Assembly (NCBI RefSeq): GCF_000008645.1
Contig: NC_000916.1
Span: 870,001-902,000, forward strand
DNA length: 32,000 nt
Direction of reading: 5' to 3'
Origin: Methanothermobacter thermautotrophicus str. Delta H
GTDB lineage: Archaea; Methanobacteriota; Methanobacteria; Methanobacteriales; Methanothermobacteraceae
A program made the translations under genes and the position numbers. The stretch's first letter is position 1, and each line of letters begins with the position of its first letter. Shown piece after piece: positions 6,467 through 32,000 of this stretch. The notes under the pieces are model-generated. The model saw only the letters and a program-made list of their open reading frames with translations, had not been told where the DNA came from and did not search any database.

Positions 6467-7309
6467 CTACTCTGGCATGGGCTCCAGGTCGGCTCCAGCT
6501 GAGAGGTCCCTCTCCTCCTCGCCGTCGTACTGTATTTCTTCGATTTCGAAGAATTTTCTGAAGGCTGGTTCCCGGACCTTTTCCTCGTAGACGTGGGATA
6601 TGAGTCCTGGGAGGCGTCCTATCATGAATACTCCTGCTCCGGTCCTCCAGTCGAATCCCATGTCTGATAGTATGCCGGCGTTGGCCCCGTCAACGTTCAT
6701 CCGGACTCCCTTGCGTTCCAGGAGTATCTCCTGGACCTCCAGTGCAAGGCTGGTGTGGGGTCCCACGCAGCCGTAATCCTCTGCAAGTTCCAGTAACCTG
6801 ACGGCCCGGGGGTCGGCGTTGTGGTAGCGGTGCCCGAACCCGGGGATCCTCCTGTTGGCCTGGAGGTGATCATCAACCAGCCTCAGGGCAGCATCAGGGA
6901 TCTCATCCTCAGACTCGCAGGATGATACAGTCTCCTGGAAGAGCTTCATGGAACGCTCAATGGCACCCGCATGATTCTTACCAAAGGCAAGCAGACCCCC
7001 GGCAATACAGGCATGAACCGGAGAACCCGCCGAGGCAATCATACGGGCAGCCTGAGTACTCGGCGGAGTAACACCATGATCACAGAAGGACACCAGGACA
7101 GCCTCAAGCATACGCGCAACATTCTGAGGGGGAAGCTCACCCCTGATCAGAAGATAAACCATCTCAGAAAAGGAAACACCACCAATAAGATCCTCCTGAG
7201 AATAACCCCTCGTAACAATACGGTTAGGCTCAACACGCGTAATGGAAGTCCTCCACCTGGGGGAACCCGCCCTGAATACCTGCTCAAGTGATTCCTTTCC
7301 TATAGCCAT
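6467..7309 (-). CDS. Short citrate synthase-family protein (citryl-CoA lyase-like)
   Basis: At 280 aa it is much shorter than a true citrate synthase. It keeps the catalytic-domain signatures ...FGKNHAGA..., ...IPGFGHRYHNADPRA... (the GHR.Y..DPR motif) and ...GRLPGLISHVYEE. Its size and motifs resemble citryl-CoA lyase or the ATP-citrate-lyase C-terminal domain. Confidence 0.7.
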   Translation of the reverse strand: MAIGKESLEQVFRAGSPRWRTSITRVEPNRIVTRGYSQEDLIGGVSFSEMVYLLIRGELPPQNVARMLEAVLVSFCDHGVTPPSTQAARMIASAGSPVHACIAGGLLAFGKNHAGAIERSMKLFQETVSSCESEDEIPDAALRLVDDHLQANRRIPGFGHRYHNADPRAVRLLELAEDYGCVGPHTSLALEVQEILLERKGVRMNVDGANAGILSDMGFDWRTGAGVFMIGRLPGLISHVYEEKVREPAFRKFFEIEEIQYDGEEERDLSAGADLEPMPE

Positions 7310-7318
7310 TCATTCACC

Positions 7319-8194
7319 TCAGAGATCTATTGTTGCCCTTCTGGGTTCCACACAGCATGCAAGCCTCATTGAGACTATCCTCACGCCGCTGGCCCTCTGG
7401 GGTCCCACCTTAATCATGGCCCCCAGGGCTGTCGTGGATCCCCCAAGACCAAGGGGCCCTGTCCCGGTACTGTTAAGGGATTCTGTGATGTGCTCCTCAA
7501 TCCAGGACTGTTCATCAAGATTTCCTGTTGCCATGGCCCTGAGCATAAGGCCAGTGGCCTCAAAATGAGTTCTCCCGATACCTATAGCCGGTATGCATGG
7601 TGTGCACCCCAGCATCGGGACCTCTGTTTTCATCCATGTTATAACTTCCTCAAATACTTTTCTATAACTGTGCCTGTGGAAGATCCTCCTTGTCCTCGCC
7701 CTTATCTCGGGACCCCCTCCAAGCATGAGGACATGGATCCTGACCCCCTCACCGGGCGCCGAATCCACCGTGAAGGGTGCCGGTGGGAGTTTCGCCGGGT
7801 CACTGTACAGTCCCCTGCTCTGCTCTATCCTCTCCACCTCATCACCCCTTACAGCCATTGGGCGTCCCGGGAGTTCCCTGAGGCCCTCCTCAACACCCCT
7901 CTTCAGATGGTTGAAGAATCCTGCAGGGAGGCTGGCGTCCTCCCCCACCTCCACTATCAGGTGGGGTATCCCTGTATCATCGCAGAGTGGTCTTCTCTCC
8001 CTTTCTGCTATGCGGGCGTTTTCAATTAGAAGTTCAAGTATCCATGCGGATCTCTCATCCTCCTCCACCTCAAGGGCCCTCTCGTAGGCCCTGAGGACGT
8101 CGGGGGAGTAGGTTGTGGATGCCTGGATGATGGCATCCCTGACTCTCCCGGCGAGATCCAAGCTATCCTCCCCCCACGGGTACAGCGAGGTCAC
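7319..8194 (-). CDS. Fe-S type hydro-lyase, fumarate hydratase/tartrate dehydratase alpha-domain family (divergent)
   Basis: 291 aa with ...RPLCDDTGIPHL..., ...GCTPCIPAIGIGRT... and ...GPLGLGGSTTAL...ACCVEPR. These correspond to the cluster-binding Cys and the GxGGxTTA motifs of class I fumarase alpha subunits, but the sequence is clearly diverged. The ATG at 8194 overlaps the upstream gene by 32 nt. An in-frame TTG at 8161 would remove the overlap. Confidence 0.7.
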   Translation of the reverse strand: MTSLYPWGEDSLDLAGRVRDAIIQASTTYSPDVLRAYERALEVEEDERSAWILELLIENARIAERERRPLCDDTGIPHLIVEVGEDASLPAGFFNHLKRGVEEGLRELPGRPMAVRGDEVERIEQSRGLYSDPAKLPPAPFTVDSAPGEGVRIHVLMLGGGPEIRARTRRIFHRHSYRKVFEEVITWMKTEVPMLGCTPCIPAIGIGRTHFEATGLMLRAMATGNLDEQSWIEEHITESLNSTGTGPLGLGGSTTALGAMIKVGPQRASGVRIVSMRLACCVEPRRATIDL

Positions 8195-9062
8195 CGCCCT
8201 CAGATAGGACGGCCTCAGGATAGTAGCGCTCTATCATGTCCCTCACAAGGACAACCTGCCTTATCCTCTCACGCGCCTGGGCCTCGGTGGTTTCCCAGCC
8301 ATGGTGCCCGGCCACGGAGCCCCCGGTCTTGAGGTAGACAGGTGCTGCGTACCTTATGATATCCGGGACCTCGTAGTGCCTTATGAATCCGCCTGAGGAC
8401 TTGGGGTTCTCTGTGTGAACATCAATTGAAATGTCGATGGCCTCCCTGAGTGATGCCAGCATTGGTATCTGGAGGTCCCTCACAGGGTTCAGGGAGTCTG
8501 CACCGATATCCTGGAGCAGGTGTGCTGAGGCAGGATTCCCGTGACCGCAGTGGGCTGAGACCTTAAGGTGGAGGTCAGCTGGAAGTTCACCGTCCCCGCG
8601 CATCCTTCCAAGAACCCAGAGGAGGCCCTCATCATAGACCACTATACCCCTGACACCGAGTTCGGCTGCCCTCTTAACGTCCTCAACTGCGTAGACAAGG
8701 TTATCATATCCCCTGAGCCTGTAGCCTATCCTTGCACCCTCGGGGGTCCTTGCGGAGGCACTGGTATCATAGGTGGCCCGTGGCCCTACGCTGAGGAAGA
8801 GTTCAATGTCTGCGTCCCGGGCCATCCCTGCCATTTCCTCAATCTCGGTGTCTGTGAGGAGCATTATGCCACGGGTCTGTGTCACCCTGTGGACCCTGAC
8901 ATCCTGCTGCTCCATTGCATCTATGAGGGCTGCCATGGCACCGGGCCTCTGTATGCCCGGAACCTCAAATCTGTACTGGCCTCCATCACTGAATCTCTTC
9001 TCTGATTCGCCCCTGGGGGCCCCTATTCCAATCTTATTAAGGTATCTGCGGGTTTCTTCCAA
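8163..9062 (-). CDS. Conserved hypothetical protein (299 aa), function unknown
   Basis: Long ORF in the same orientation as its neighbours. TTG start at 9062 is preceded by GGAGGTGA 5 nt upstream. Alternating hydrophobic-strand and helix pattern (..VRGIVVYDEG.., ..ADSLNPV.., ..SIDVHTEN..). I do not recognise the family. Confidence 0.6.
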   Translation of the reverse strand: MEETRRYLNKIGIGAPRGESEKRFSDGGQYRFEVPGIQRPGAMAALIDAMEQQDVRVHRVTQTRGIMLLTDTEIEEMAGMARDADIELFLSVGPRATYDTSASARTPEGARIGYRLRGYDNLVYAVEDVKRAAELGVRGIVVYDEGLLWVLGRMRGDGELPADLHLKVSAHCGHGNPASAHLLQDIGADSLNPVRDLQIPMLASLREAIDISIDVHTENPKSSGGFIRHYEVPDIIRYAAPVYLKTGGSVAGHHGWETTEAQARERIRQVVLVRDMIERYYPEAVLSEGGDLAVPVGGG

Positions 9063-9165
9063 TTTTTCACCTCCAGTTTAACTTTACGCTTGCGGGATTT
9101 CCGGTCGATCAGTTCCAGCATCACCGGGCAGATCCCACCATCACATCACAATTCCACGCAACGGA

Positions 9166-10470
9166 TCACCTGCCAGACAGCTCCAGCATCACCTCAGCAA
9201 CAGGTTCCTGATCCGCCTCTTTTATAACCTCAAGCCTCTCTGTTTCATATCCAGGGTTCAGTTCCCTGAACTTCTCAACAATGTCATCCCAGGTGTAGGG
9301 TTCCTCGGGTTCACCCCGGGGGAGCTCCCTGTAGGCTGTAAGGACATCACCGTTTCTGAGCCTCACCGTCACCCTTGAAGGTCTCATGTTCCGGAGCTCC
9401 TCCATAGCAGGGTCCACCTCAATCCTTATCCGGGAGGCCATCTCTGGGGAAAATCCACCCTCAAGGTCTTCAACCCTCAGCTCTCCCCCCTCAAGCAGTA
9501 TGCCCAGTGAGACCGGGAGGCTCTGCCGCACAGCCTCCACGGTAGCCGGGGAGTAACTGTCATGCTCTGCTGCGATCCTGTAGGTTGAGACTATGACCTC
9601 CTCTATCTCCGATGCCCTGAAATCATTCTCCCTGATTATCTCGGCTGCAGCATCCAGGGTGGAGTGGAGGTGCCTGCAGACAGGGTACCTCTTGAGGTAA
9701 ACGTTCCTTATATGGAAAGCTCCGACTTCGGGTGATTCACCCCCGTAGCCATCTGAACGGCACATTGCACGCAGGAATCCCTCATCTCCCTCGATCACTG
9801 ATTCTGCGCCTGTGAATCCCTGGGAAGCGAGCCTGGCGGATATCAGGCCAGACTGGGCTGCCCTGCCCGCGTGGAGGTGCTTTGCCATCGTCCCGGCATG
9901 GTCAGATTCCAGGAGCCCTGCTGCCTGGGTGCCTGCAATCCCCAGGGCATTGACGACGGCATCCACATCGGAACAGATGATCCTTGAGGCTGCCGCTGCA
10001 GCTCCGAATGTTCCGCAGGTCCCTGTCGTATGGAATCCAAGCTCCCTGTGTCCTGGATTGGCGAGGATGCCCATGAAGATTGCTGCCTCGTATCCGGCGA
10101 CCATGGCTGTTATGAAGTCCCTGAAGGTGGCCCCGGTTGCCTCGGCAGCTGCAAGGGCTGCCGGGATCACACATGAACCAGGGTGCATCTGGGCCCCCCG
10201 GTGTCCATCGTCAAGGTCAAGGTTATGGGCGAATATGCCATTGAGGAGGGCTGCCCTTTCGGTGTCGCCCCTGCCATGGCCGATGATGGTGGCCCCGCCT
10301 GAGCCCTTACCCATGGCCCCCAGTGCCATCAGCCCGCTCATCTCAGAGGAGCCCCTCAGTGCAACTCCAAGGAAGTCCAGGAAGCATAGTCTGGCCATTT
10401 CAGTGGCATCTGGGGGTATGTCACTGTATGAGAGTGATGATACAAACTCCGCAAGTCTTCTGGTCATCAT
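9166..10470 (-). CDS. MmgE/PrpD family protein (2-methylcitrate dehydratase-like fold)
   Basis: N-terminal ...LAEFVSSLSYSDIPPDATEMARLCFLDFLGVALRGS... and ...NLDLDDGH..., ...HPGSCVIPAALAAAE... are hallmark PrpD-family segments. The track ORF starts at 10524, but homologues start near MMTRRLAEF, so I place the start at 10470. That also removes the overlap with tiaS. Confidence 0.85.
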   Translation of the reverse strand: MMTRRLAEFVSSLSYSDIPPDATEMARLCFLDFLGVALRGSSEMSGLMALGAMGKGSGGATIIGHGRGDTERAALLNGIFAHNLDLDDGHRGAQMHPGSCVIPAALAAAEATGATFRDFITAMVAGYEAAIFMGILANPGHRELGFHTTGTCGTFGAAAAASRIICSDVDAVVNALGIAGTQAAGLLESDHAGTMAKHLHAGRAAQSGLISARLASQGFTGAESVIEGDEGFLRAMCRSDGYGGESPEVGAFHIRNVYLKRYPVCRHLHSTLDAAAEIIRENDFRASEIEEVIVSTYRIAAEHDSYSPATVEAVRQSLPVSLGILLEGGELRVEDLEGGFSPEMASRIRIEVDPAMEELRNMRPSRVTVRLRNGDVLTAYRELPRGEPEEPYTWDDIVEKFRELNPGYETERLEVIKEADQEPVAEVMLELSGR

Positions 10471-19601: not shown

Positions 19602-20512
19602 CCCCTCCATGGCTCCCTTATGATCGCCCTGCAGACCCTGCTGCAGCTACCACAGTCACGTGGAATACTGCAACCCGCTGCCTTCAATCTGTCCTCAAGT
19701 CTCAGCTCAGAGGCCGGGTAGTAGCCAGAATAGTCAACCCTCTCAAGACCCTCTGCCCTGCATTCCTCAACGAGTCTCTCCATCAGCTCTCTGCCGGGCC
19801 CCCTGTGGTAGTAGAGCATGAAGTTTGGTCTGAAGCCTATGAGGCGGTAGGGTATCTCCGGGTCGATGGAGGCTATGAAGGCGGCTATTTCACGGATCTC
19901 ATGGTCATTGATCCCGGGGATCACCACTGTCCTGAAAACCCTTATCTTATCAGGGAACCTACCTGCAAGGTGGGCTGCGTTTCTGAGTACAGGTTCTGCA
20001 GGTGCACCTGTGAGGTTCCTGTGAAGCTCATCTGAAAGGGCCTTTATCTCAAAGCTGAAGAGTGATGTTAACCCTATGAGCCTCCTTAGGGTTCCAGGGG
20101 TTGAGAACCCGTTTGTTGCGAGGATAACACTGACATCGATTTCTTCCCTTACTCGCCTTACCAGCTCCTCAATGTAGGGTGTGTGTATGGATGGTTCTCC
20201 CCCTGTGAAGCTGATATTTGAGATTCGCTCATGTGATTTAATTGCAGTGATGGCCTCATCTGCAAGTTCCTCTGCTTCAACGTGTCCCCTGTAGATCCAG
20301 CCAGAGTGGGGGTACTGGGATATGCGGTAGGCGTTACAGTAGGCGCACCGGAATGGGCAGCACAGGAATGTGACGGAATAACTTCTCAGGGTTTCTGAGA
20401 TGGATGTGTATGCTATTTCTGTTTCTGATGCACCGCACACGCCCCTTTCCCCATCACTCCGATTTGCACCGCACCTCCACTCACAGAGCATGCATCTCCC
20501 TGATTCATCCAT
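19598..20512 (-). CDS. Radical SAM protein, pyruvate formate-lyase activase-like
   Basis: CPFRCAYCN (CxxxCxxC radical SAM cluster motif), an N-terminal CMLCEWRCGANRSDGERGVCG motif, GGEPS glycine-rich SAM motif, and C-terminal extra Cys residues (GCSIPRDCGSCSRVC). Confidence 0.85.
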   Translation of the reverse strand: MDESGRCMLCEWRCGANRSDGERGVCGASETEIAYTSISETLRSYSVTFLCCPFRCAYCNAYRISQYPHSGWIYRGHVEAEELADEAITAIKSHERISNISFTGGEPSIHTPYIEELVRRVREEIDVSVILATNGFSTPGTLRRLIGLTSLFSFEIKALSDELHRNLTGAPAEPVLRNAAHLAGRFPDKIRVFRTVVIPGINDHEIREIAAFIASIDPEIPYRLIGFRPNFMLYYHRGPGRELMERLVEECRAEGLERVDYSGYYPASELRLEDRLKAAGCSIPRDCGSCSRVCRAIIREPWRG

Positions 20513-20671
20513 GGTAACAGTTTATGGGATGTGATTAATACATTTTTCTGAAAAGTAGGGGAGTTTTTATGCAGGTGATGAAAAGGTGAAGGTACTGTGA
20601 TATTGACGAATATCTCCAGAGAATAAAGATATGATGATGGCATTCCAAAAAAAATTAAAATTGGAATGGAT

Positions 20672-21856
20672 TTATGCTATCTGCCAGTAGGTGGATGTCT
20701 TCTTAACGTACCTGTAGGTCCAGTAGTATCTCCACTTGTATCTCCATTTACCGTAGTACCTGTACCATTTCTTGTACCATTTCTTCACCTTCACCTTAAC
20801 GTAGTAGGTGAGGGTCACTGGCTTCATGATTGTGTAACTTGCTGATGATACCGCTGATGATGCGCCGTTAACAACTGCAATGAATTTCAGTGCTGTTGAT
20901 TTGCTCAGAACCAGTGGCGCTGTGTATTTTGTGCTGTTGACTGTTGGTGTGGAGCCATTGGTTGTGTAGTATATTGTTGAGTTTGCAGGGCCTGTGAGTG
21001 TCACGGTAACATTTTTGAGGTATATTCCTGATGCCGGGCTTGCAGATGGTGCTGCTGGAGTTGATGTGACCGCTGCTGGTGTGAGGTCGCCCACGGTAAC
21101 ACTGTGGAGTCCTGCTGGCAGTTCGTATGTGAATGTGACTTCCCTGGTTTCTCCTGTGGCGAGGGTCACTGTCTTGGTGTCCTTCACCTCACCGTTGACC
21201 TTAAGCTCAGCTGTGTAGTCCCCTGCAACACCTGTGTTTGTGACATTGACTGTCACGTTCACGGTGAGGGGTGCGCTGCCGCTCAGGGGGTTAACTGTGA
21301 GGTTTGCCAGTGAGAAGTGTGGCTGCAGGTCCACTGTGAGGTTGGTGGAGTTCAGTACTGTTTCATTTTCAATTCCGCCGGTTGAATTCAGCTGGAATGC
21401 CACTGAACTTGCCCTTACCCTGAAGACCTTACCATTTGCATTTTCAACGACGAAGAGCCACCTGTAACTATTTCCATCTTCCATGAAGAGCTTTGCTGCT
21501 CCCTGGGGTACCGGTGCCCCTGTGAAGGAGCTGAGCCAGACCTCCTGGACACCTTCAGGTACCGTGTAATCTGCTGAGGGTCCGCTGAGGTCACCGGTGT
21601 AGTACCACTTTATGGTTGCATCTGTGATGTTACCCTCAAGGAGTTCAAGCTTTGCATCGACCGCAACTGTGGGATCAACGTCCTGGAGGTCATCACTGTA
21701 GTTAACATCGACAATTATCTGTGCGGGGTCCGAGGCGTTCTGCTGCATTGTCAGGTTAACAGCATTGGATGGTATATCTGCTGCTGATGCACCTGAGATA
21801 CCTGCAGCGAATGCAAGCAGGACCAGTAATGGTAGCACAATATGTTTGTCTTTCAA
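20672..21856 (-). CDS. Secreted/cell-surface protein with signal peptide, CARDB-like and Fn3-associated-like beta domains and a W/Y/K/R-rich C-terminal tail
   Basis: TTG start is preceded by GGAGGTGA 4 nt upstream. Signal peptide is MKDKHIVLPLLVLLAFAAGISGASA. I count about 15 N-x-S/T sequons. The segment LTVNPLSGSAPLTVNVTVNVTNTGVAGDYTAELKVNGE...TREVTFTY resembles CARDB adhesion domains. The tail is VKVKVKKWYKKWYRYYGKWRYKWRYYWTYRYVKK. Confidence 0.75.
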   Translation of the reverse strand: MKDKHIVLPLLVLLAFAAGISGASAADIPSNAVNLTMQQNASDPAQIIVDVNYSDDLQDVDPTVAVDAKLELLEGNITDATIKWYYTGDLSGPSADYTVPEGVQEVWLSSFTGAPVPQGAAKLFMEDGNSYRWLFVVENANGKVFRVRASSVAFQLNSTGGIENETVLNSTNLTVDLQPHFSLANLTVNPLSGSAPLTVNVTVNVTNTGVAGDYTAELKVNGEVKDTKTVTLATGETREVTFTYELPAGLHSVTVGDLTPAAVTSTPAAPSASPASGIYLKNVTVTLTGPANSTIYYTTNGSTPTVNSTKYTAPLVLSKSTALKFIAVVNGASSAVSSASYTIMKPVTLTYYVKVKVKKWYKKWYRYYGKWRYKWRYYWTYRYVKKTSTYWQIA

Positions 21857-22350
21857 GTTTTCACCTCCACATTATCATCAGATATTAGATAGATATATTT
21901 AATATAAAAATTTTTTTGTTTAACTGGAATCATAAGACTTAAGTTCTGTTATTAATTTAAATCTTGAGAATTTACATATAATTCAAGTCAAGTACATTAA
22001 AAATTGGTATGAACCATATTTACCTAGAAATAGCAGATTATGGCCCCCCCCAGATCCAGTCTCAGGTATTGTCATGAATCAGATCACTTCAAACATGACT
22101 GACAATTTTTTATTAAAAAAATAATTACATATACTTTTTTATTAAAAATTGTAGCTGCCTGAGAACCCTTTATAAAAATTTTGAACCCCCATTATGATCT
22201 GAATCACTCATATAGATCATATTAATCCAGAAAAACGCCAAAATATCCATTCAGATTACCCTTATTAAAATAGGGAACAATTCAGGGGATTATTCAGTTC
22301 TCAATCAAAGTTCTGAAAAATTAAGGAGAGGGTGCATTCAGCGGACCGGA
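21857..22350. other. ~0.5 kb AT-rich non-coding region upstream of the surface-protein gene
   Basis: No ORF of 60 aa or more on any frame. It is visibly much more AT-rich than the flanking DNA and has multiple TATA-like strings. It also contains a duplicated ttttttattaaaaa (22105 and 22135) and an isolated C8 run at 22044-22051. Confidence 0.7.
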
Positions 22351-23762
22351 TCAGTTTTCATTTAGGACTATCAGCTTTGTGCGTGTCATGTCCCTTATGG
22401 CGTACTTGACACCCTCCTTACCCATTCCACTGCACCTGAATCCCCGAAGGGCATGTGGTCCACCCTGAATGTGGACTGCTTGTTTACAAGCACTGTGCCT
22501 GCCTCAATTTCCCTGGCCATCCTGAGGGCCGTCCTTATGTTCTCTGTGAAGACCCCTGCCTGAAGTGCATAGCAGGTCCCGTTGGCAATTCTTATGGCCT
22601 CATCAGCACCATTAAACCTTATTATTGGGGAGACCGGGCCAAAGGTTTCCCTTTCAATAACCTCCATGCCGGGCACCACATGGTCAAGCACCGTGGGTTC
22701 AACAAAGTTACCCCTCCTTGAACCGCCACAGAGGAGTTCAGCACCATCCTCAACCGCCGCCCCGATTACCCTCTCAACCTCAATGGCGGCATCCTCATTT
22801 ATCAAGGGCCCAACATCTGTTCTTACATCCATTGGGTCCCCGGCCCTTAAACTCCCTGTTATGTTCACGAGTTTATCTGCGAATTCATCGGCCACGTCCT
22901 CATGGACTATCATCCTCTTAACGGCTATGCAGACCTGTCCAGAGTAGAGGTAGGATCCCCTCACAGCAGCCTCCACTGCAGAGTCGATGTCCGCGTCATC
23001 CATGACAATGAGGGGGTCGTTGCCTCCCAGTTCAAGGGTGATCTTCTTCATGGAGGCCCTGGCAGATATGTACCTCCCGACCTCAACACTTCCAGTGAAG
23101 GTTATCTTATCAACGAGGGGGCTGTCAATGATAACATCCCCCACCTCTGAGCCCCTCCCGGTTACAGCGTTAACAGCGCCGGCCGGGAAGTGCTCACTGA
23201 GGATCCATGCCAGCTTCAGTGCAGATAGTGGGGCCTCGAGGGATGGCTTAAGGATCGTGGTGTTACCGGCTGCAAGGGCCGGGCCAACCTTGTGTATTGC
23301 AAGGTTGAGGGGATAGTTGAAGGGGGTTATTGCCGCAACAACCCCGAGGGGGATTCTGACTGTGAAGCCAGTGAGACCCTTCCCGCCTATACCCGCGTCC
23401 ATGGGGATTGATTCACCGTAGAGCCTTCCTGCCTCCTCTGCAGAAAGCCTTGCAGTTTCAACTGACCTCTTCACCTCGTCACGTGAGAACCTTATTGGTT
23501 TTCCTGACTCAAGGGTTATCAGCCTTGCAAATTCATCCAGTTCTGTCTTCAGTTCGTCTGCAACGTCATAGAGTTTCTCAGATATCTTCCTGGCTGATAG
23601 GTCCGCCATTGCATCCCTGGCCCGGTGGGCCGCCCTTATGGCCCTCTCAACATCACTTCGACCTGCAAGTGGGACCCTATCCACCTCATCCCCGTTGAAG
23701 GGGTTCCTGACGGTGAAGATTTTCTCTCCACTCACCCCCTCGCCATCAATAATCATCTCCAT
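22351..23762 (-). CDS. NAD(P)+ aldehyde dehydrogenase (lactaldehyde dehydrogenase/GapN-like); frame-interrupted near the 3' end in this sequence
   Basis: ALDH signatures are ...LELGGNDP... (catalytic Glu) and ...[11 protein letters not shown]... (catalytic Cys). The continuous ORF is 22395..23762. The canonical C-terminus [33 protein letters not shown] is read in the adjacent frame and ends at 22351 (see findings). Confidence 0.88.
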
Positions 23763-23857
23763 CTGGAAACACCCCGTAAAGGATCAGCCCACAGAGACGT
23801 AGCCCTGCTCTGGATTATAGATTCAAAATTATAAATCAATCAAAGCCGGTATGTGCC

Positions 23858-24049
23858 CTAGAACTTGTTCTTAAGGCCCTTTATCGAGTTTGTAACATTC
23901 TGAACATCTGAGTTCATGGCTGTTTGAGATCCCCTGACATAGTTGCGGTACCATACAACCGCCACCGTTACGATGACTATTATACCCCCGAATACAAGTA
24001 TGAGTTCAGCGGATCCCTGACCTGATTCATCGGCAATTAAACCATGCAA
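23858..24049 (-). CDS. Class III signal peptide protein (archaeal type IV pilin-like)
   Basis: 63 aa. ...SGQGSAELILVFGGIIVIVTVAVVWY matches the G-Q-x-S/A-x-E + hydrophobic helix pattern of archaeal prepilin-type (class III) signal peptides. It lies 13 nt downstream of the TadC-like gene. Confidence 0.7.
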   Translation of the reverse strand: MHGLIADESGQGSAELILVFGGIIVIVTVAVVWYRNYVRGSQTAMNSDVQNVTNSIKGLKNKF

Positions 24050-24062
24050 AGCCTTAACCTCC

Positions 24063-25004
24063 CTATGGTGCCATGCTACTTACAAGTGTCATTCCGAAAC
24101 TTCCTATCACATAGAATATTGCATATGCCATTATGGAGAGCGGAACAGCGAATTTAACACCCTTCCTTGCACTCCCGTACATTATGATGCCTATCAGGAG
24201 CCCTGCTATTATGGAGTGAATTATTATGTAGCCTGAAGCAGCGATCTTTGCAGCCCCAAGGATGGGGTTTGGTTTTCCCACTGACTCCATGAAACCTGAG
24301 TAGACCATTATCATCCCCAGGGCGAAGGGTGCTGCGATTATGGCCGCGACAACAAGGAACATGACTGACATCATGACGTTGGCCTTCCTCTCCCTCTTAA
24401 GTGCAAGTACCGCCCTCAGGTCCTCTGCAACGGTTTCAATGACATCTGAAAGGCTTCCACCGGCTCTTCTACCCTCAAGTATCATCCGGAATGTCCTGTC
24501 AAGGTTTTTTGACTTCAGGCGCTCGCTCATTGATAGTATGGCTTCATCGAATGTTCTGCCGATCTTTATCTCAATAACAGCCCTCTTCAGTTCATCATAG
24601 AGGGGTCCCTCCCCCTGTCGGGATACATCCTCAAGGGCTGATTCAAGGCCCACACCCGCCCTCAGGAGAGAGGCTATCTGCCTCAGGAAGTCGGGTGTTG
24701 ACTGTTCAATGGCATCAACGCGCCTCTCCATCATTATGAAGATGTACGCCCCCAGCATGATTGATGGCAGGGAGAATCCTACCAGTACTGCGAGGATAAC
24801 ACTTAAACCAAGAAGGGCTGCAACAACGGATGCGAGAACTGCAAATATGGCCCCTCCAAGGAATGCAAGGGTTACTATCTCTGATGCCTTTACATACAGC
24901 CCGGTCCTTATGAGGGTCTCCTGCAGCCTGAGGAGCAGCCTATCAGGTATTATGTTCTCAAGGGCATCGCTCATTGGTTTCAGTGCGCTTGGTACTACGG
25001 CCAT
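24063..25004 (-). CDS. Type II secretion system F-domain membrane protein (TadC/FlaJ-like pilus assembly platform)
   Basis: 313 aa, polytopic. The cytoplasmic segment [23 protein letters not shown]...[31 protein letters not shown]...[26 protein letters not shown] is the typical T2SS-F/TadC domain. Confidence 0.8.
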
Positions 25005-25078
25005 CTCAACACCACATTCCAGTGTAACATCATGCTCTGTTACTAACTATCTGGCGCCTATTATTTATAATTACCACA

Positions 25079-26089
25079 TCAACTCAGTGCATCAGGCAGC
25101 CGGTTCATAACACCATCACCCACCACGACCATGTCCTCAACCCGCACACCGAACTCGCCCGGGATGTAGATCCCTGGTTCAACTGTCAGGACCATCCCTT
25201 TCCTCAGGACGGTTTCATCACCTGCTGCCAGGGATGGCTTTTCATGGACATCCAGGCCCACTCCATGACCTGTTGAGTGTATGAAGTTATCAGCATAGCC
25301 ATATTCCCCTATAACTCCTCTGACAGCACTGTCAACATCACATGCCCTTGCACCAGGTTTGAGGGCCTTCACCCCCGCCCTTTTAGCTTCAAGGACAATT
25401 TCAAGTACCTCATGCTCCCCTTCACCCTCAACGATTGTCCTTGTGGTGTCAGAGTGGTAGCCCTCCCTGACAGCCCCCCAGTCAATCAGTACCGGTGACT
25501 CGATGGTGTTTGCTGTTGGCACTGCATGGGGGATGCTTGACCTCTCCGATGATGCCACTATGGTGTCAAAGGAGACCCCCTCAGAACCGGCCAGGCGCAT
25601 GGTGTAGTCAAGTCTGGCGGCTATCTCAATTTCAGTCCCATTAAATTCAAGTTTTTTGAATGAGTTCTCTGCTATCCTCAGGGCCTCCTCCATCCTTTTA
25701 AGTTCCTCCCTGTCCTTGACCATCCTGATATCTGATACAGGATCCATGACCCTGAAGTCCCCACCGATGCCGAGCCTCTCAAGGAGGCCCACGGGGGTGG
25801 CCGGTTCAACAAGCACGCCTGAGAGGTCGAATGATTCCCTCACATCCCTTATTCTCTTGAAGGTCCTCACATCAACCCGGGATTTCGCCATGGCGGATTC
25901 TCTATCCATCTCACTCACAAGGAGTACCGGTTCATCCTCAAGGATCAGGAATGAGGTGGCTGTTGGCATGAAGCCTGAGAGGTAGTATATGTTCTTCCTT
26001 GCAGTTATAAGGGCCCTTTCGCCCTCCTCATGAATATTCTCAAGGGCACATTCGATTCTATTCAACCTATCACCTTTCCATACATCCAT
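25079..26089 (-). CDS. M24 family Xaa-Pro dipeptidase/aminopeptidase
   Basis: 336 aa. Metal-ligand motifs of the pita-bread fold are ...VLIDWGA...YHSDTTRT..., ...HSTGHGVGLDVHE..., ...TVEPGIY..., ...VRVEDMV. Confidence 0.85.
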   Translation of the reverse strand: MDVWKGDRLNRIECALENIHEEGERALITARKNIYYLSGFMPTATSFLILEDEPVLLVSEMDRESAMAKSRVDVRTFKRIRDVRESFDLSGVLVEPATPVGLLERLGIGGDFRVMDPVSDIRMVKDREELKRMEEALRIAENSFKKLEFNGTEIEIAARLDYTMRLAGSEGVSFDTIVASSERSSIPHAVPTANTIESPVLIDWGAVREGYHSDTTRTIVEGEGEHEVLEIVLEAKRAGVKALKPGARACDVDSAVRGVIGEYGYADNFIHSTGHGVGLDVHEKPSLAAGDETVLRKGMVLTVEPGIYIPGEFGVRVEDMVVVGDGVMNRLPDALS

Positions 26090-26110
26090 TCATCACCAGA
26101 GGACAGAGAG

Positions 26111-26602
26111 TTAAATATCCTCTCCCTCATTCAGAAACTTAAGTATCCTCTCCCTCATTATGCCTTCAAGTTCATCCATAACAAGCTCCGGGACCTTACC
26201 TTCAAGTGGGACAGGTATGTGGCCGAACTCTCTGTCCCTGAAGGTTTCGCCTCCGAACCTGACCGGCCTGCTGTACCTTGGATGGAAGTGCCAGTGCACC
26301 TCAGGGTCCGGATCCTCTGATCTGAAGGCCGAGTTCTTGAAGCAGCTCCAGTTGAAGAGGTCCGGGTTGAAAAGTTCCCTCACGGCAGACTCAAGGCACC
26401 TTAGAATCCATGCAAAATCAGCCCACTCCCCATCCATGAGCTCTGAGAGGTCCCTGCACTTCCTTCTGAGGGCCACGACGCATGTCCCGAGGTATCGCTG
26501 GCTCGGTGCAAGGTAGATTATCCAGTGCCGTGTTCTGGCAAGTTCGCGTCCATAGTACCCATCCAGGCCACAGTATTCACAGGAAGCCACAGGAATCACC
26601 AC
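26111..26602 (-). CDS. HIT (histidine triad) family protein
   Basis: 163 aa with the histidine triad ...EVHWHFHPRY (HxHxHxx). GTG start at 26602 as in the track. Confidence 0.72.
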   Translation of the reverse strand: MVIPVASCEYCGLDGYYGRELARTRHWIIYLAPSQRYLGTCVVALRRKCRDLSELMDGEWADFAWILRCLESAVRELFNPDLFNWSCFKNSAFRSEDPDPEVHWHFHPRYSRPVRFGGETFRDREFGHIPVPLEGKVPELVMDELEGIMRERILKFLNEGEDI

Positions 26603-26637
26603 ACCATTTAATAAGGTTTAATTAAGAGTATACCTCC

Positions 26638-26646
26638 TTATATATA
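26638..26646. promoter_or_regulatory. Palindromic TATA element (TTATATATA) between the divergent HIT and Fe-ADH genes
   Basis: This is the best TATA-like string in the 26603-26706 spacer. It lies ~36-40 nt from the HIT GTG start on one side and ~20-25 nt from the first ATG of the 43-bp repeats on the other. Pattern-based only. Confidence 0.4.
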
Positions 26647-26663
26647 GAACATGGGGTGCCATG

Positions 26664-26765
26664 ATGAAATCTGTACTGAACCAGGCACTGAAGAACATAA
26701 CATCCCATGAAATCTGTACTGAACCAGGCACTGAAGAACATAACATCCCATGAAATCTGTACTGA
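26664..26765. repeat. 43-bp perfect tandem repeat, 2 full copies plus a 16-nt third start
   Basis: atgaaatctgtactgaaccaggcactgaagaacataacatccc occurs at 26664-26706 and 26707-26749. A third copy, atgaaatctgtactga, runs from 26750 and then diverges. Confidence 0.95.
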
Positions 26766-27923
26766 TCCAGATCAGGGACTGGTGGTGAAGTTGGGGGAAC
26801 TTAGAAAATTCGTTACAAGTGAATTCGTATTTGGTGACAGGGCAAGATTCCTTGCTGGCAGATACGCCCTGAACCTCGGAGCCGACAGGTCCTCCTTGTG
26901 ACCGACAGGGGGTTAATGAAGACTGGATTCGTTGAGGATGTCAGCTCCTCCCTTGAGGAGGAGGGCCTCGAATATGTCATCTTTGATGATGTGACGCCCA
27001 ACCCCCGTGACCATGAGGTCATGGAGGGTGCTGAGGTCTTCGATGCCGAGGAATGCAACATGATAGTTGCCCTGGGTGGTGGAAGCCCCATTGACTGTGC
27101 AAAGGCCATGGGTGCTGTTGTATCCAACAGGATGCACGTACTTGACTTTGAGGGTGTTGATATGATCCCGACCCCCTCGGTTCCCATAATATGCATCCCC
27201 ACAACTGCAGGGACAGGAGCGGACGTCTCCCAGTTTGCAATCATCCTCGACACCCGGAGGATGGTGAAGATAGCCATCATAAGCAAGGCCATGATACCCG
27301 ACGCATCACTCATAGACCCTGAGACCACCGTCACCATGGACCGGGAACTGACAGCTTCAACAGGTATGGATGCCCTTGCCCATTCCATCGAAGCCTATGT
27401 ATCCAATGCAAGCTTCCATCTGACTGACCTCAACGCCCTGGACGCCATCAGAATCATAAGCAGGTGCCTCCCATCTGCCGTTGATGAACCCGAGAACATG
27501 GAGTACCGTGAGGGTATGATGCTTGCAAGCCTCGAGGCTGGCCTTGCATTCTCAAATGCCAGTCTGGGACTTGTCCATGCAATGGCCCACAGCCTTGGAG
27601 GCAAACTTGACATGGCCCACGGTGAGGCCAATGCACTGCTACTTGAACACGTGATAGAATTCAACTACCCTGGAGCCACTGAACGGTACCATGAAATCGC
27701 ACGGGCAATGGGCCTCAGGGGCTCGGGGCCCGCCGAGCTCATTGATTACATCCGGGAATTCAGGTCCAGCATAGGGATCGACATGACCCTGGAGGATCTC
27801 GGCGTCGGGGAGGACGACATACCTGAACTTGCAGAGGCCTCAATGAAGGACCCCTGCATTGTAACAAACCCTGTACGGCCCTCAATTGAAGATGTTGAGG
27901 CCATATTCAGGAGGGCCCTCTGA
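26707..27923 (+). CDS. Iron-containing (group III) alcohol dehydrogenase; frame-interrupted near the 5' end in this sequence, true start uncertain
   Basis: ORF 26898..27923 carries ...ALGGGSPIDCAKAMG..., ...IPTTAGTGADVSQF... and ...HAMAHSLGG...HGEANA..., which are Fe-ADH signatures. The family N-terminus (...FVTSEFVFGDRARFLAGRYALNLGADR) lies in ORF 26707..26901 in the adjacent frame. Possible starts are ATG 26707, GTG 26782/26785 and TTG 26791. Confidence 0.85.
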
Positions 27924-27935
27924 GGTGCTGGTGAA

Positions 27936-29033
27936 ATGTCTGATAGAGACTGGGAAACCCTCCGGGAAAAGATAATCGGATTCGGTGAGAAATCCGTAAG
28001 GAAGAGCTACTACCCGAGACTTCAGGAGTCAATGGCCGAACTTGAAAGGTTCAGAAAACTCCTTGACTGCGCAGATGACGCCATATTCCTGGTTAAAATC
28101 CCTGGTGGTGAACTCGTGGATGCCAACCGTTCAGCCTGTGTAATGCTAGGATACTCCACCAGGGACATCCCGGGACACATGGTATACGATCTCCTGCCAG
28201 GGGAACTCCACAATGTATTCCGTGGAATACTGGAGGGTGATGAAGACAGGGTGACCATGGATGGCCGTTTACTTAAGAGGGACGGCGATGAGGTGCCCGT
28301 TGAGATAAAGGTAAACATCCTTGATTTTAAGGGTGATAGATACGCTGTGCTCGTTGCCAGGGATATAAGCGAGAGGCTGAGGATGGAGTCAGAGCTGATG
28401 AAATCCCTCAGGGAGAATGAGGTCCTTCTGAGTGAGATACACCACAGGGTCAAGAACAACCTCCAGATAATATCAAGCCTTCTGAGCCTCCAGAGCCATG
28501 GTATCGATGACCCATCATGCAGGTCTCTTCTTTCAGAGAGCCAGGACAGGATAAGGTCAATGGCACTCATACATGAACAGCTCTACCGCTCAGGGGACTT
28601 CAGCTCCATAGAATTCTCATCATATGCCTCAAGGCTCCTCAAGAACCTCAAAAGATCATACGCCCCCGGGAAGAATATCGAGCTATCACTGGACACCGAA
28701 AACCTGAAACTCAGCCTTGAGACATCAATACCCCTTGGCCTCATGCTCAGCGAGCTTGTGACCAATGCCCTCAAACATGCCTTTAAGGGAAGAGATAGTG
28801 GTAATATAATTGTTAAATTTAAAAAGGATGGTGATTACTGTGTCCTTGAGGTCAGGGATGATGGTGTGGGTTTCAATGAGGAGAAGATCAGGAACAGCAC
28901 CTCACTGGGCTTTAGACTTGTTGAAATACTCACAGAACAGCTGGACGGATCACTGACATACTCCGGAGAGAACGGAGGACTTTTCAGAATAAGGTTCAGA
29001 GAACCCCTCTACAAGGACAGACTGACCAATTAA
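27936..29033 (+). CDS. Sensor histidine kinase: PAS domain + HisKA_2-type dimerisation/phosphoacceptor + HATPase
   Basis: PAS-like region ...LLDCADDAIFLVKIPGGELVDANRSACVMLGYS...RDGDEVPVEIKVNIL.... H-box is EIHHRVKNNLQIISSLLSLQ. ATPase N/G boxes are ...ELVTNALKHAF... and ...VRDDGVGF.... No TM helix, so it is predicted cytoplasmic. It starts 12 nt after the ADH stop, with GGTGA upstream. Confidence 0.85.
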   Translation: MSDRDWETLREKIIGFGEKSVRKSYYPRLQESMAELERFRKLLDCADDAIFLVKIPGGELVDANRSACVMLGYSTRDIPGHMVYDLLPGELHNVFRGILEGDEDRVTMDGRLLKRDGDEVPVEIKVNILDFKGDRYAVLVARDISERLRMESELMKSLRENEVLLSEIHHRVKNNLQIISSLLSLQSHGIDDPSCRSLLSESQDRIRSMALIHEQLYRSGDFSSIEFSSYASRLLKNLKRSYAPGKNIELSLDTENLKLSLETSIPLGLMLSELVTNALKHAFKGRDSGNIIVKFKKDGDYCVLEVRDDGVGFNEEKIRNSTSLGFRLVEILTEQLDGSLTYSGENGGLFRIRFREPLYKDRLTN

Positions 29034-29045
29034 ATACAATTAACA

Positions 29046-29050
29046 TTTTT
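29046..29050 (+). terminator. Oligo-T tract in a short AT palindrome after the histidine kinase gene
   Basis: aacatttttaatgtt (6-nt inverted arms around T-rich centre) lies ~10 nt after the stop codon. This is weak, pattern-based evidence. Confidence 0.3.
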
Positions 29051-29190
29051 AATGTTCTGAGAGGATTATACACCTTATACCGTCTCAAGCTTTATTAAAG
29101 GCTTGAAGGGTTAAATAAAGGTTTTTGTATCTCTGCAGGTGGTGAAGGGTCATTTCATGGCCCCATCAAAGCCCATGGAAAGCATTATAA

Positions 29191-29790
29191 ATGGTGCCCT
29201 ATGTTAATATGAATATGGTTAGATTCAACAGGGAAGAGGTCAGGGACATTCTCGTGTCCATGGTTGTAATTGCAGGCGTATTCGCCTATGTTTTCTCAGG
29301 AAAGAACATTCAGACTGCACTGGTTCTTCTTCCAGCAACCCTGATCACGGTTGGCCTTGGATTTGTCCTCCATGAGATAGCCCATAAACTGATGGCCATA
29401 AGGTACGGTTTCTGGGCAGAATACAGGCTATGGCTTGAGGGCCTTCTGCTTGCACTGGTAACGGCCTACTTCGGATTTGTCTTTGCAGCCCCGGGTGCGG
29501 TCTACATCCATGGCAACTACATTGAGAGAGATGTGAACGGTAAGATATCCCTTGCAGGACCCCTAACAAATATAATCCTTGCAATCATGTTCCTCATGGT
29601 ATCCACGGTACTCCCATCACCCATCAACCAGGTGGCGTTCCTTGGATACGCTGTCAACAGCTTCCTCGCCCTCTTCAACCTCATACCCCTCGCGGTGCTT
29701 GATGGGGCCAAGGTTTTCAGGTGGAACCCCCTGATCTGGCTCCTTGCAGCCGCAGCTGCATTTGGGCTGACATTCAACAGCATGCTCTGA
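29191..29790 (+). CDS. M50 family (site-2 protease-like) membrane zinc metalloprotease
   Basis: HEIAH (HExxH) sits within a TM helix, followed by the downstream [10 protein letters not shown] (NxxPxxxLDG) motif. Multiple TM helices. The start is ambiguous among ATGs at 29191, 29209 and 29215. Confidence 0.8.
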
Positions 29791-29799
29791 GTGGTTAAG

Positions 29800-30983
29800 A
29801 TGTTCCGGGATATTCCTGTCAGGTACATTGGATGCACCCACAGGCCGTGAGGCCCTCTGAGACCCTGAAGGCCTTCGGGGACAAACTCTCCATGATAGGT
29901 GTTACAAGGATCACCGAGATAACACACCTTGACCGCATCGGCATACCCGTATTCTCCGCCATAAGACCAACAGCAGAGGATGGAGCTGTGAGCATATACG
30001 CCGGTAAGGGCGCCACCAGAACCCAGGCAAGGGCCTCGGCCATGATGGAGGCCTTTGAGAGGTATTCAGCAGAAAGAAAGCCCGAAGATGAAACATTCAC
30101 AGCTCACCCAGAGGACTGTGACGGCCTTGACCCTGAGTCACTGATACTTCCAGGGTCCACTGATCTGAAATCTGAACTGGAGTGGATTAATGCAGAGAAC
30201 CTCACCGGTGATGAGGAGGTCCCGGTACCTGCAAATGCTGTTTTTCATCCATACAACCCTCCGGAAGGCTGCATGAGTCTGTTCCGATCAAACACCAATG
30301 GACTTGCATCAGGGAATGCAAGGGAGGAGGCCATATTCCATGGGCTGATGGAGGTGATTGAAAGGGATGCCTGGAGCCTCTTCGAGGCTAGGAGGGGTCC
30401 CAAAGTGGAGGTTGACTGCTCAGGGACGGATAATGATATAATATCAGGACTCCTTGAGAAGTTCCATGCCGCTGGTGTGGAGGTGACCCTGGTTGACCTT
30501 ACAGCAGACACCGGGGTTGCGACGGTGGCTGCGGTTGCAGATGACACCGTCCTGAGGGATCCGGCCCTCCTCACCATGGGCGTCGGGACCCACCTTGACC
30601 CTGAAATTGCGGTTATAAGGGCCCTCACAGAGGTCGCCCAGAGCAGGGCCACCCAGATACATGGAACCCGTGAGGACACCGTCAGGGCCGAGTTCATGAG
30701 ACGTGCCGGGTATGAGCGTATGAAGAGACTCAACAGGCACTGGTTCAGTGAACCGGAGGACACGATTACCCTGGATGAGATGGAGGACCTCTCAACAAGG
30801 TCATTCAGGGGAGACCTTGAGATAACCCTCAGGAAACTGCGTGAATCCGGTCTAGAGGATGTTTTCTATGTTGACCTCACCCGTGATGTGGGGGTCCCTG
30901 TCGTCAGGGTCATAGTTCCGGGCCTTGAGGTCTTCTCTGTTGACCCGGAACGTGTGGGGCGTCGCATCAGGTCCTCCATCTGA
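29800..30983 (+). CDS. ycaO: YcaO-domain protein (methanogen TfuA-associated YcaO, peptide backbone thioamidation); frame-interrupted after codon ~15 in this sequence
   Basis: ORF 29832..30983 contains ...[24 protein letters not shown]... and the YcaO ATP-binding signature ...[25 protein letters not shown].... The expected N-terminus [15 protein letters not shown] is encoded from ATG 29800 in the adjacent frame (see findings). Confidence 0.87.
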
Positions 30984-31101
30984 GGATTCTGTAAAGATCC
31001 GATTCTGTCAAGTGTTTCCAGATGCAGGAGCTCCTCCTTCTGATATCCGGACCAATTTATCATCTAAAAGATTAATTATCAGCGCCAAGATACCAACCAG
31101 T

Positions 31102-31751
31102 ATGCATGGTAAGAAAATAATCATCTTCACGGGACCATCCCTATCACACACTGAAGCCTCCAGTATCCTTGAAGCTGAGTACAGGCCACCGGTGAGAAGG
31201 GGTGACATTCAGGAGGCCATGAAGGAGAACCCGGACATAATAGGCATAATAGACGGTGTTTTCCACCAGAGCCCTGCTGTTGGTCACAGGGAGATCATTG
31301 ATGCCATCAGGAGGGGTGTGAAGGTGGTTGGAGGGGCCAGCATGGGGCCCTGAGGGCCTCAGAGCTCAGTGAACTTGGAATGGTGGGTGTTGGCCGCATC
31401 TTCAGATCATACCTTGATGGTGAAATCGAATCGGATGATGACGTTGCAGTGGCCTTCAACCCTGACACCCTTGAGCCCCTCTCTGACTCCCTTGTCAGCA
31501 TAGAATTCAACCTTAAAAGAGCCCTCATGAGGGGTGTGATAAGAGAGGATGATTTCAGGGAGCTTATGAATACCGCGAAGAACCTCTTCTACCCCCTCCG
31601 AAATTACAGGAGGATCCTCCATGAAAGCGGGATCCCTGATGATACCAAAGAATCCCTGCGTTCCTTCCTTGAATCAGAGGGGAGGGACCTTAAAAGGGAG
31701 GATGCGCTGGAGGTCATCCGTCATATAAAGAAACTTGCATCTACAGGATAG
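31102..31751 (+). CDS. tfuA: TfuA-like protein (YcaO partner); split into two ORFs by a frame interruption in this sequence
   Basis: MHGKKIIIFTGPSLSHTEA...PPVRRGDI...IIGIIDGVFHQSPAVGHREIIDAIRRGVKVVGGASMG (frame 1, to 31353) continues as ALRASELSELGMVGVGRIFRSYLDGEIESDDDVAVAF... (frame 0, ORF 31380..31751). Together they give a complete TfuA domain. Confidence 0.85.
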
Positions 31752-31904
31752 GTTCCAGAAAGTAAGGGATAGAACTACACATAACAGAACCCAAATACGC
31801 AGAGATGAGACTGAACCAAACTAATAACAGAACCATGGACTGCTGCATTCAGACTACAGCGAAATGATGAACCTCACAGGACCTAGAATTATGGATGTGT
31901 TATC

Positions 31905-32000
31905 ATGGATCTTGAATCAAAGGTTGAAAGGGTTAAGACGGCCCTCAGGGGTGAGAGGATCGCCGTTGGATTCTCGGGTGGTGCTGACAGCACAGCCCTT
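31905..32000 (+). CDS. PP-loop ATP pyrophosphatase superfamily protein, first 32 codons (continues beyond window end)
   Basis: My translation from ATG 31905 is MDLESKVERVKTALRGERIAVGFSGGADSTAL. SGGxDS is the PP-loop motif (adenine nucleotide alpha-hydrolase, LarE/ThiI/TtuA-like). The ORF is open to the window end. Confidence 0.6.
   Translation, partial: MDLESKVERVKTALRGERIAVGFSGGADSTAL

Follow-up and report, generated by a model that had tools for sequence, protein, structure and literature searches.

Does the ycaO-tfuA locus of Methanothermobacter thermautotrophicus Delta H, in which both genes are interrupted and the spacer between them carries a repeat and a palindrome, represent a damaged or unusual system, or the ordinary machinery that installs thioglycine in subunit McrA of methyl-coenzyme M reductase (MCR)? 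The window that we analyzed is a stretch of 32,000 nucleotides (nt) of NC_000916.1 (positions 870,001 to 902,000, forward strand), and the locus occupies positions 29800 to 31751. An initial annotation of this stretch had assigned the two genes to McrA thioamidation and had singled out their frame interruptions, the spacer, and the linkage to an M50 protease gene upstream and a PP-loop ATPase gene downstream. The locus is the known and already annotated thioglycine-installing YcaO-TfuA pair of Delta H, and the frame breaks are one-base errors of the 1997 record. With high confidence, we read the whole as ordinary thioglycine machinery in an error-containing record, with a fast-evolving spacer that includes a probable tfuA promoter and with an ancestral gene order. 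The two genes are as follows.

29800..30983, plus strand: ycaO, McrA-glycine thioamidation ATPase, methanogenesis marker 1 (PF02624, TIGR03266); the true protein has 394 amino acids (aa).
31102..31751, plus strand: tfuA, TfuA-related McrA-glycine thioamidation protein (NF033432); the true protein has 216 aa.

As written, ycaO starts with the ATG at 29800 and runs for 15 codons to a stop at 29845-29847, and a 383-aa open reading frame (ORF) in another frame then covers 29832-30983, with the final stop at 30981-30983. This ORF (29832-30980) scored 321.9 bits against PF02624 and covered profile positions 1-325 of 325, which corresponds to a complete YcaO ATP/Mg-binding domain. Against TIGR03266, whose equivalog cutoff is 365 bits, it scored 595 bits, and the intact 394-aa protein (P0002) scored 597.8 bits. 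The tfuA gene is split in a similar way: the ATG at 31102 is followed by 83 codons and a stop at 31351-31353, and a 123-aa ORF in another frame spans 31380-31751, with the final stop at 31749-31751. The two halves scored 127.6 and 136.8 bits against NF033432 over profile positions 1-78 and 90-210, each below the cutoff of 235.2 bits, while the intact 216-aa protein (P0256) reached 302.4 bits. Full-length structural matches were found for YcaO to MJ1094 (PDB 6pe3, E 1e-84) and Methanopyrus kandleri YcaO (6ci7, E 1e-46) and for TfuA to 6xp8 (E 7e-59). Thus, the assignment of the pair to McrA thioamidation was borne out by the YcaO and TfuA profile hidden Markov models (HMMs), including that for methanogenesis marker 1, and both repaired proteins pass the NCBI equivalog models. 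RefSeq has a name for each of the four genes of the locus: the M50 gene product is called a site-2 protease family protein, the products of ycaO and tfuA are the YcaO-related and TfuA-related McrA-glycine thioamidation proteins, and that of the PP-loop gene is LarE. Because the functional names of both core genes were already in RefSeq, our analysis adds nothing to the biology of the pair itself.

The ycaO-tfuA pair of Methanosarcina acetivorans, which we take to be MA0165/MA0164, is the genetically studied counterpart. In that organism, the thioamide at Gly465 was abolished when ycaO and/or tfuA was deleted, and every MCR examined is reported to contain thioglycine (Nayak et al., 2017; PMC5589413). 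The reaction was reconstituted in vitro in an ATP- and sulfide-dependent manner, according to the summary of Mahanta et al. (2018) given in PMC7581889, and TfuA is described as a hydrolase of a thiocarboxylated ThiS homologue in a passage of PMC13063428 that cites Liu et al. (2021). By analogy with these orthologues, Delta H YcaO would catalyze ATP-dependent thioamidation of McrA: it would O-phosphorylate the backbone amide of one McrA glycine at the expense of ATP, and a sulfide equivalent would then displace the phosphate to give the backbone thioamide, thioglycine. TfuA would supply this sulfide equivalent by hydrolysis of a thiocarboxylated ThiS-like carrier. The Delta H and M. acetivorans pairs share the two equivalog-level families, the upstream position of ycaO, the same-strand orientation and a thioglycine-MCR methanogen as host. 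However, Nayak et al. describe an overlap between the stop codon of ycaO and the start codon of tfuA (PMC5589413), whereas the genes lie 117 nt apart in Delta H, where a promoter of its own is probable for tfuA, and most Methanobacterium species have them at separate loci. The neighbors also differ, with thiF, sufS, moaD/E and moeB noted in that study (PMC5589413) and M50 and LarE genes in Delta H.

Other known systems were compared in the same way. The YcaO proteins of M. jannaschii (MJ1094; 6pe3/6peu) and M. kandleri (6ci7/6cib) and the TfuA structure 6xp8 match the Delta H proteins over their full length, but tfuA is missing from the genomes of M. jannaschii and M. kandleri (PMC5589413) and present in that of Delta H. 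Biosynthetic clusters for RiPPs (peptides made on the ribosome and modified after translation), such as the thiazole/oxazole-modified microcin (TOMM)/azoline and thioamitide clusters, share the YcaO domain and, as in thioviridamide clusters, the TfuA partner, and an M50-type protease beside YcaO is reminiscent of RiPP leader peptidases. Nevertheless, the ycaO ORF scored below the cutoff of the TOMM/azoline YcaO model TIGR03604 (SagD; 167.9 vs 219.25 bits), no precursor peptide gene is present at the Delta H locus, and the orthologues act on a 60-kDa enzyme subunit, from which no leader has to be removed.

The frame breaks were evaluated by comparing the window, which reproduces the 1997 Delta H record, with the resequenced Delta H genome CP064324, which recent work takes as the Delta H reference genome (PMC10579436). 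The alignment of window positions 19802-32000 (12.2 kb) with CP064324 contained no substitutions and exactly five one-base indels, listed here with their effect as seen in that alignment.

22441: one C missing (CCCC instead of CCCCC); breaks the aldehyde dehydrogenase gene.
26887: one G missing (GG instead of GGG); breaks the Fe-alcohol dehydrogenase (Fe-ADH) gene.
29842: one G missing (GG instead of GGG, run 29843-29844); breaks ycaO.
31024: one surplus G in the window; no gene affected, ycaO-tfuA spacer.
31343: one G missing (GGGG instead of GGGGG, run 31344-31347); breaks tfuA.

Four of the five are undercounts of G or C runs, each of which breaks one of four unrelated genes within 9 kb. 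The ycaO and tfuA frameshifts and G31024 were absent from CP064324 and from every other strain or assembly examined: three independent assemblies of Sequence Read Archive (SRA) runs had the corrected state at all three sites that they cover, strain EMTCatA1 (98% identical) had it at the ycaO, tfuA and spacer sites, and two metagenome contigs of the Joint Genome Institute (JGI) encode intact ycaO and tfuA. In an 82%-identical Methanothermobacter metagenome-assembled genome (MAG; L001), all four affected genes are in frame. The 383-aa YcaO ORF of the window is otherwise identical to the intact 394-aa protein of CP064324. An alternative is that the breaks are real, with ycaO and tfuA being pseudogenes or being expressed by programmed frameshifting in the Delta H culture that was sequenced. 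Both genes are indeed split in the window as written, but the recurrence of the same kind of −1 error in unrelated genes, together with the complete lack of substitutions, points to base-calling compression rather than pseudogenization or programmed frameshifting. The intact forms in independent assemblies and strains and the report of thioglycine in all MCRs examined (PMC5589413) further make this alternative extremely unlikely. Therefore, the description of both genes as frame-interrupted is true of the record (at 29843-29844 and 31344-31347) and not of the organism, in which both genes are intact.

Two of the errors lie outside the locus. The undercount at 22441 truncates the aldehyde dehydrogenase, which occupies 22395-23762 on the minus strand as written. 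That at 26887 removes about 64 N-terminal residues of the Fe-ADH, which has 405 aa in CP064324 and a true start near 26707.

The fifth indel lies in the spacer, to which the initial annotation had given a length of 118 nt, a direct repeat with a 16-nt period and a palindrome.

30984..31101, plus strand: ycaO-tfuA intergenic spacer; 118 nt as written and 117 nt after removal of the spurious G31024.
30985..31012, plus strand: direct repeat with a 16-nt period, GATTCTGTAAAG / GATTCTGTCAAG; chance-level.
31027..31034, no strand: palindrome GGAGCTCC; chance-level and not conserved.

The length holds for the record, but the true spacer has 117 nt, as G31024 is absent from CP064324. The two motifs are likewise where they had been placed: the octamer GATTCTGT occurs at 30985-30992 and 31001-31008, and the match extends to 11 of 12 positions over GATTCTGTNAAG. 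Such motifs could mark the distal spacer as a regulatory element: a dimeric or tandem-binding regulator might use it as an operator, it might form a structured RNA, or it might act as a terminator between ycaO and tfuA. The 11/12 repeat at a spacing of 16 nt and the AGGAGCTCCT palindrome would suit an element of this kind, and an 8-bp hairpin, AUCAGGAG/CUUCUGAU, can be drawn in the corrected sequence, although no T-run follows it. However, both motifs are at chance level. When the window was cut into 118-nt tiles, 94 of 541 (17%) contained an exact direct repeat of at least 8 nt, 40 of 541 (7%) contained one within 30 nt, and the value for shuffled versions of the spacer was 7%; perfect palindromes of at least 8 nt were present in 178 of 541 tiles (33%) and in 38% of the spacer shuffles. 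The predicted RNA fold of the spacer was no better than that of shuffled sequences (−19.8 vs −19.4 kcal/mol, z −0.12), and a search of the whole window against Rfam at gathering thresholds gave no hits. A permissive Rfam search of 30900-32000 returned as its sole match a long non-coding RNA at E 0.57, which we judged meaningless.

Conservation also speaks against a regulatory role of the distal spacer. In EMTCatA1, G31007A mutates the second octamer copy and G31028A destroys the palindrome, and L078, a 92%-identical relative, has other sequence in place of the entire distal spacer, so that repeat and palindrome are both absent. The distal 77 nt of Delta H differ by 6.5% from those of EMTCatA1, close to the 5.6% at ycaO third-codon positions and hence to a synonymous-like rate, while one base differs in the proximal 40 nt. 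Taking these results together, we consider a regulatory element in the distal spacer very improbable. The 117-nt spacer is real, fast-evolving and lineage-specific, and its distal repeat and palindrome have no detectable function.

The length of the ycaO-tfuA gap varies within Methanothermobacter, from an overlap (−44 nt; L080) through 73-88 and 117 nt to 199 and 214 nt. In the spacer of the Methanothermobacter MAG L001 (11191-11371), a 60-nt unit is repeated 3.0 times with 96% matches and copies the 5′ end of tfuA, which suggests either that spacers grow by local duplication or an assembly artifact in that MAG. A small tandem duplication may likewise have left the 16-nt-period repeat of Delta H. 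As a separate observation, GGAGCTCC occurs five times in the window (9321, 9393, 14644, 18749 and 31027) against 0.91 expected, a count reached by 1 of 100 shuffles.

One part of the spacer behaves differently.

31061..31097, plus strand: conserved tfuA-proximal block CATCTAAAAGATTAATTATCAGCGCCAAGATACCAAC; 37 nt, the only part of the spacer kept among Delta H, EMTCatA1 and L078.

Archaeal promoters carry a B recognition element (BRE) and a TATA box about 25 nt upstream of the start site. Within the block, AAAG followed by TTAATTAT (31072-31079) forms a BRE/TATA-like element at −30 to −23 from the tfuA ATG, and no Shine-Dalgarno sequence was found between this element and the ATG. A very similar arrangement, AAAGC followed by ATTATAAA, stands before the M50 gene, at −31 to −24 from its RefSeq start (29215). 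Because the position of the element fits archaeal promoter geometry and the block is conserved, tfuA would have its own promoter and a leaderless or near-leaderless mRNA, and the 37 nt most likely carry this predicted BRE/TATA promoter. In many Methanobacterium genomes tfuA stands at a separate locus and must therefore be transcribed independently there.

The corrected sequence permits one further interpretation. In corrected Delta H (L067 11183-11305; window 30981-31104), the tfuA ATG lies in the reading frame of ycaO beyond its TGA, and the stretch between the two consists of 39 sense codons without a stop; the same holds for EMTCatA1, and read-through of the ycaO stop codon would thus yield a YcaO-TfuA fusion. 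However, an in-frame, stop-free spacer of this length is expected by chance in about 5% of cases, (61/64)^39 × 1/3. Moreover, the spacers of L078, L079 and L001 are not multiples of three and contain stops, and Delta H and EMTCatA1 differ by non-synonymous changes in the linker. The probability of a read-through fusion is close to negligible.

Several points temper our overall reading. Thioglycine in Delta H McrA itself is a prediction from the orthologues. The tfuA promoter and the idea of two transcription units are predictions from conservation and geometry, and the lack of a recognizable Shine-Dalgarno sequence before tfuA requires its mRNA to be leaderless or to have a very short leader; no usable transcription-start map for Methanothermobacter was found in the literature. 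Finally, a real difference between laboratory lineages is formally possible as the source of the frame breaks, since the comparison was made with assemblies.

We also examined how the gene order around ycaO and tfuA is distributed. The remaining features of the locus are as follows.

29215..29790, plus strand: M50 site-2-protease family gene, predicted small membrane protein; 191 aa from the RefSeq start (the mechanical ORF begins at 29191 and has 199 aa).
31752..31904, plus strand: tfuA-larE intergenic region; 153 nt, with many indels and substitutions relative to the 98%-identical L071.
31905..32000, plus strand: 5′ end of a LarE-family PP-loop ATPase gene; 32 codons, running off the window, with SGGADS at 31974-31991.

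The M50 gene scored 39.5 bits against PF02163 (cutoff 27.2), and its translation contains HEIAH (HExxH) and the NxxPxxxxDG motif. The gene ends at 29790, 9 nt before ycaO, so the tight linkage that had been noted applies to this junction; the PP-loop gene begins 153 nt after tfuA and is not tightly linked. In relatives, the tfuA-larE gap ranges from −11 to 180 nt.

Neighborhoods were counted in one representative genome per Methanobacteriaceae species, giving 66 loci, with the loci that had room on the relevant side as denominators. The gene immediately upstream of ycaO was M50 in 64 of 64 loci, in the same orientation and at a distance of 0-244 nt (median 58), and this adjacency persisted though the Fe-ADH/histidine-kinase pair further upstream was often absent. 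In contrast, the gene immediately downstream of ycaO was tfuA in only 7 of 56 loci. Two Methanobacterium genomes, one of them that of Methanobacterium sp. ACI-7, have tfuA elsewhere, behind unrelated upstream genes and with a co-directional LarE-type gene as its immediate downstream neighbor (gaps of 82 and 180 nt); 3′ of this tfuA-larE pair come, all on the opposite strand as in Methanothermobacter, a hypothetical gene and CBS, Usp and amidohydrolase genes. The gene that follows ycaO in these species encodes a molybdopterin-oxidoreductase domain. Thus, the gene order behaves as two units, M50-ycaO and tfuA-larE, which Methanothermobacter has side by side and most Methanobacterium species have apart. 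Contrary to the published generalization of overlapping genes, ycaO-tfuA adjacency is the exception in Methanobacteriaceae, and Delta H has the 117-nt gap in place of the overlap of ycaO stop and tfuA start described by Nayak et al.

A metagenome scan anchored on a TfuA alignment extended the comparison to 58 loci, including distant lineages at 43-57% identity and with GC contents of up to 64%. Here, ycaO lay directly upstream of tfuA in 51 of the 58 loci, mostly abutting or overlapping it. Only six loci had an M50 relative near ycaO (by tblastn or profile HMM) and only 13 had a LarE relative directly after tfuA, and these M50/LarE loci were all of low GC with Methanobacteriales-like gene order. 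Compact loci from the human gut (L097, L098 and L100) have the order M50-ycaO-tfuA-larE with a 2-nt tfuA-larE gap, while in a Methanobrevibacter lineage (L054 and L115) the LarE gene has been lost from its position and the surrounding genes, including tfuA and those downstream, are kept. Outside Methanobacteriales, no M50 gene was found in any scanned locus with room upstream of ycaO. The order M50-ycaO-tfuA-larE is therefore the ancestral one of Methanobacteriales and is absent elsewhere. The proposed M50-YcaO-TfuA-PP-loop module stands as a conserved gene order within Methanobacteriales and received no support as a function.

Two further observations came from these scans. In L047 (11142-12074) and at least 10 other Methanobacterium loci, a gene with a PF00174 molybdopterin-oxidoreductase domain overlaps or abuts the ycaO stop where tfuA is not adjacent. 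Weak LarE matches 4-5 kb downstream of tfuA in non-Methanobacteriales loci proved to be GMP synthase subunit B, except in L134; this locus, which is outside Methanobacteriales, encodes a LarE that is genuine (254 bits) together with an NcsA-like tRNA thiolase, both on the opposite strand and 1.5-5 kb downstream of the ycaO-tfuA pair (6680-10192).

LarE has an established role in nickel-pincer cofactor synthesis. The full-length Delta H LarE homologue (P0270, 350 aa; L067 12107-13159) scored 191.8 bits against the LarE model TIGR00268 (cutoff 150), and its best PDB match was 8cnz, to whose cysteines (CxxC and a third Cys) its RCFVCK and TTCLATR segments align. The CXXC-C motif binds a [4Fe-4S] cluster in Thermotoga maritima LarE (PMC9283937). 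The homologue thus resembles the [4Fe-4S] LarE sulfur insertases of the T. maritima (PMC9283937) and 8cnz family in the SGGADS motif, the CXXC-C triad, the TIGR00268 assignment and the best structural match. It differs from them in a C-terminal extension of about 95 residues, weakly similar to the TBP fold (Pfam TBP, E 0.011), which canonical LarE lacks, and in being linked to tfuA and not to larA, larB or larC. No larA, larB or larC gene was found in the 10 kb downstream of the locus. All tfuA-linked LarE homologues have 343-357 aa, made up of the LarE core with SGGADS and CXXC-C and this C-terminal domain, compared with 259-286 aa for canonical LarE.

Could the M50 protein and the LarE-type PP-loop protein then be dedicated, order-specific accessory factors of thioglycine formation, with the four genes forming one module in which, for example, a LarE-like [4Fe-4S] insertase feeds TfuA/YcaO and the M50 protein acts with YcaO? 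The invariant position of M50 before ycaO although the flanking genes change is in favor, as is the behavior of tfuA, which, when parted from ycaO, remains the immediate upstream neighbor of the LarE homologue and points in the same direction (L074, L076, L082-84 and L087) and overlaps the LarE gene or lies 2-14 nt from it in some lineages (L001, L080 and L097). The LarE homologue also has the SGGxDS and CXXC-C motifs of a sulfur insertase (as defined in PMC9283937) and the extra C-terminal domain. However, conservation across the order extends over the entire block from M50 to amidohydrolase, and simple inheritance of gene order explains the adjacency; because this block includes opposite-strand genes, adjacency alone is no proof that M50 or LarE takes part in thioamidation. 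The Methanobrevibacter loci that keep tfuA without a LarE gene there, the confinement of M50 to Methanobacteriales among loci with room, and the Methanobacteriales-like GC content and gene order of all 13 tfuA-LarE loci argue in the same direction, as does the other established role of LarE. In addition, YcaO and TfuA orthologues work in vitro without M50 or LarE (PMC7581889). Literature searches for a LarE-TfuA link and for MTH986-990 returned nothing usable. We therefore regard a four-gene thioglycine module as unlikely. A variant with two two-gene units, in which the tfuA-linked LarE would be a dedicated sulfur-mobilizing partner that feeds TfuA/YcaO and replaces or supplements the ThiS-thiocarboxylate route, and in which M50 might act with YcaO, is equally doubtful, and conserved inherited order around an ordinary YcaO-TfuA pair remains our preferred reading.

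Upstream of the M50 gene, window positions 26707-29033 encode an ErcA-like alcohol dehydrogenase-like regulatory protein (NF041833, 533.8 bits for the truncated ORF) followed by a PAS/HisKA_2 histidine kinase. This pair stands upstream of M50-ycaO in many, but not all, Methanobacteriaceae. A 43-nt unit repeated 2.5 times with 98% matches (26664-26770) lies across the point where the ErcA-like Fe-ADH gene truly starts and duplicates its first codons upstream, and a 28-nt unit is repeated twice at 26104-26159.

This locus calls for caution: what looked like a "frame-interrupted system" of a model organism goes back to five one-base errors in a 1997 GenBank record, and the short intergenic motifs are background. 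What the comparison does provide is a modest lead, namely that M50-ycaO adjacency is universal in the Methanobacteriaceae loci and that tfuA travels with a LarE-type sulfur insertase. Work on the physiological source of sulfur for thioamidation is still in progress, and the tfuA-larE pairing is therefore a hypothesis that could be tested at low cost in Methanothermobacter, which is now genetically tractable.

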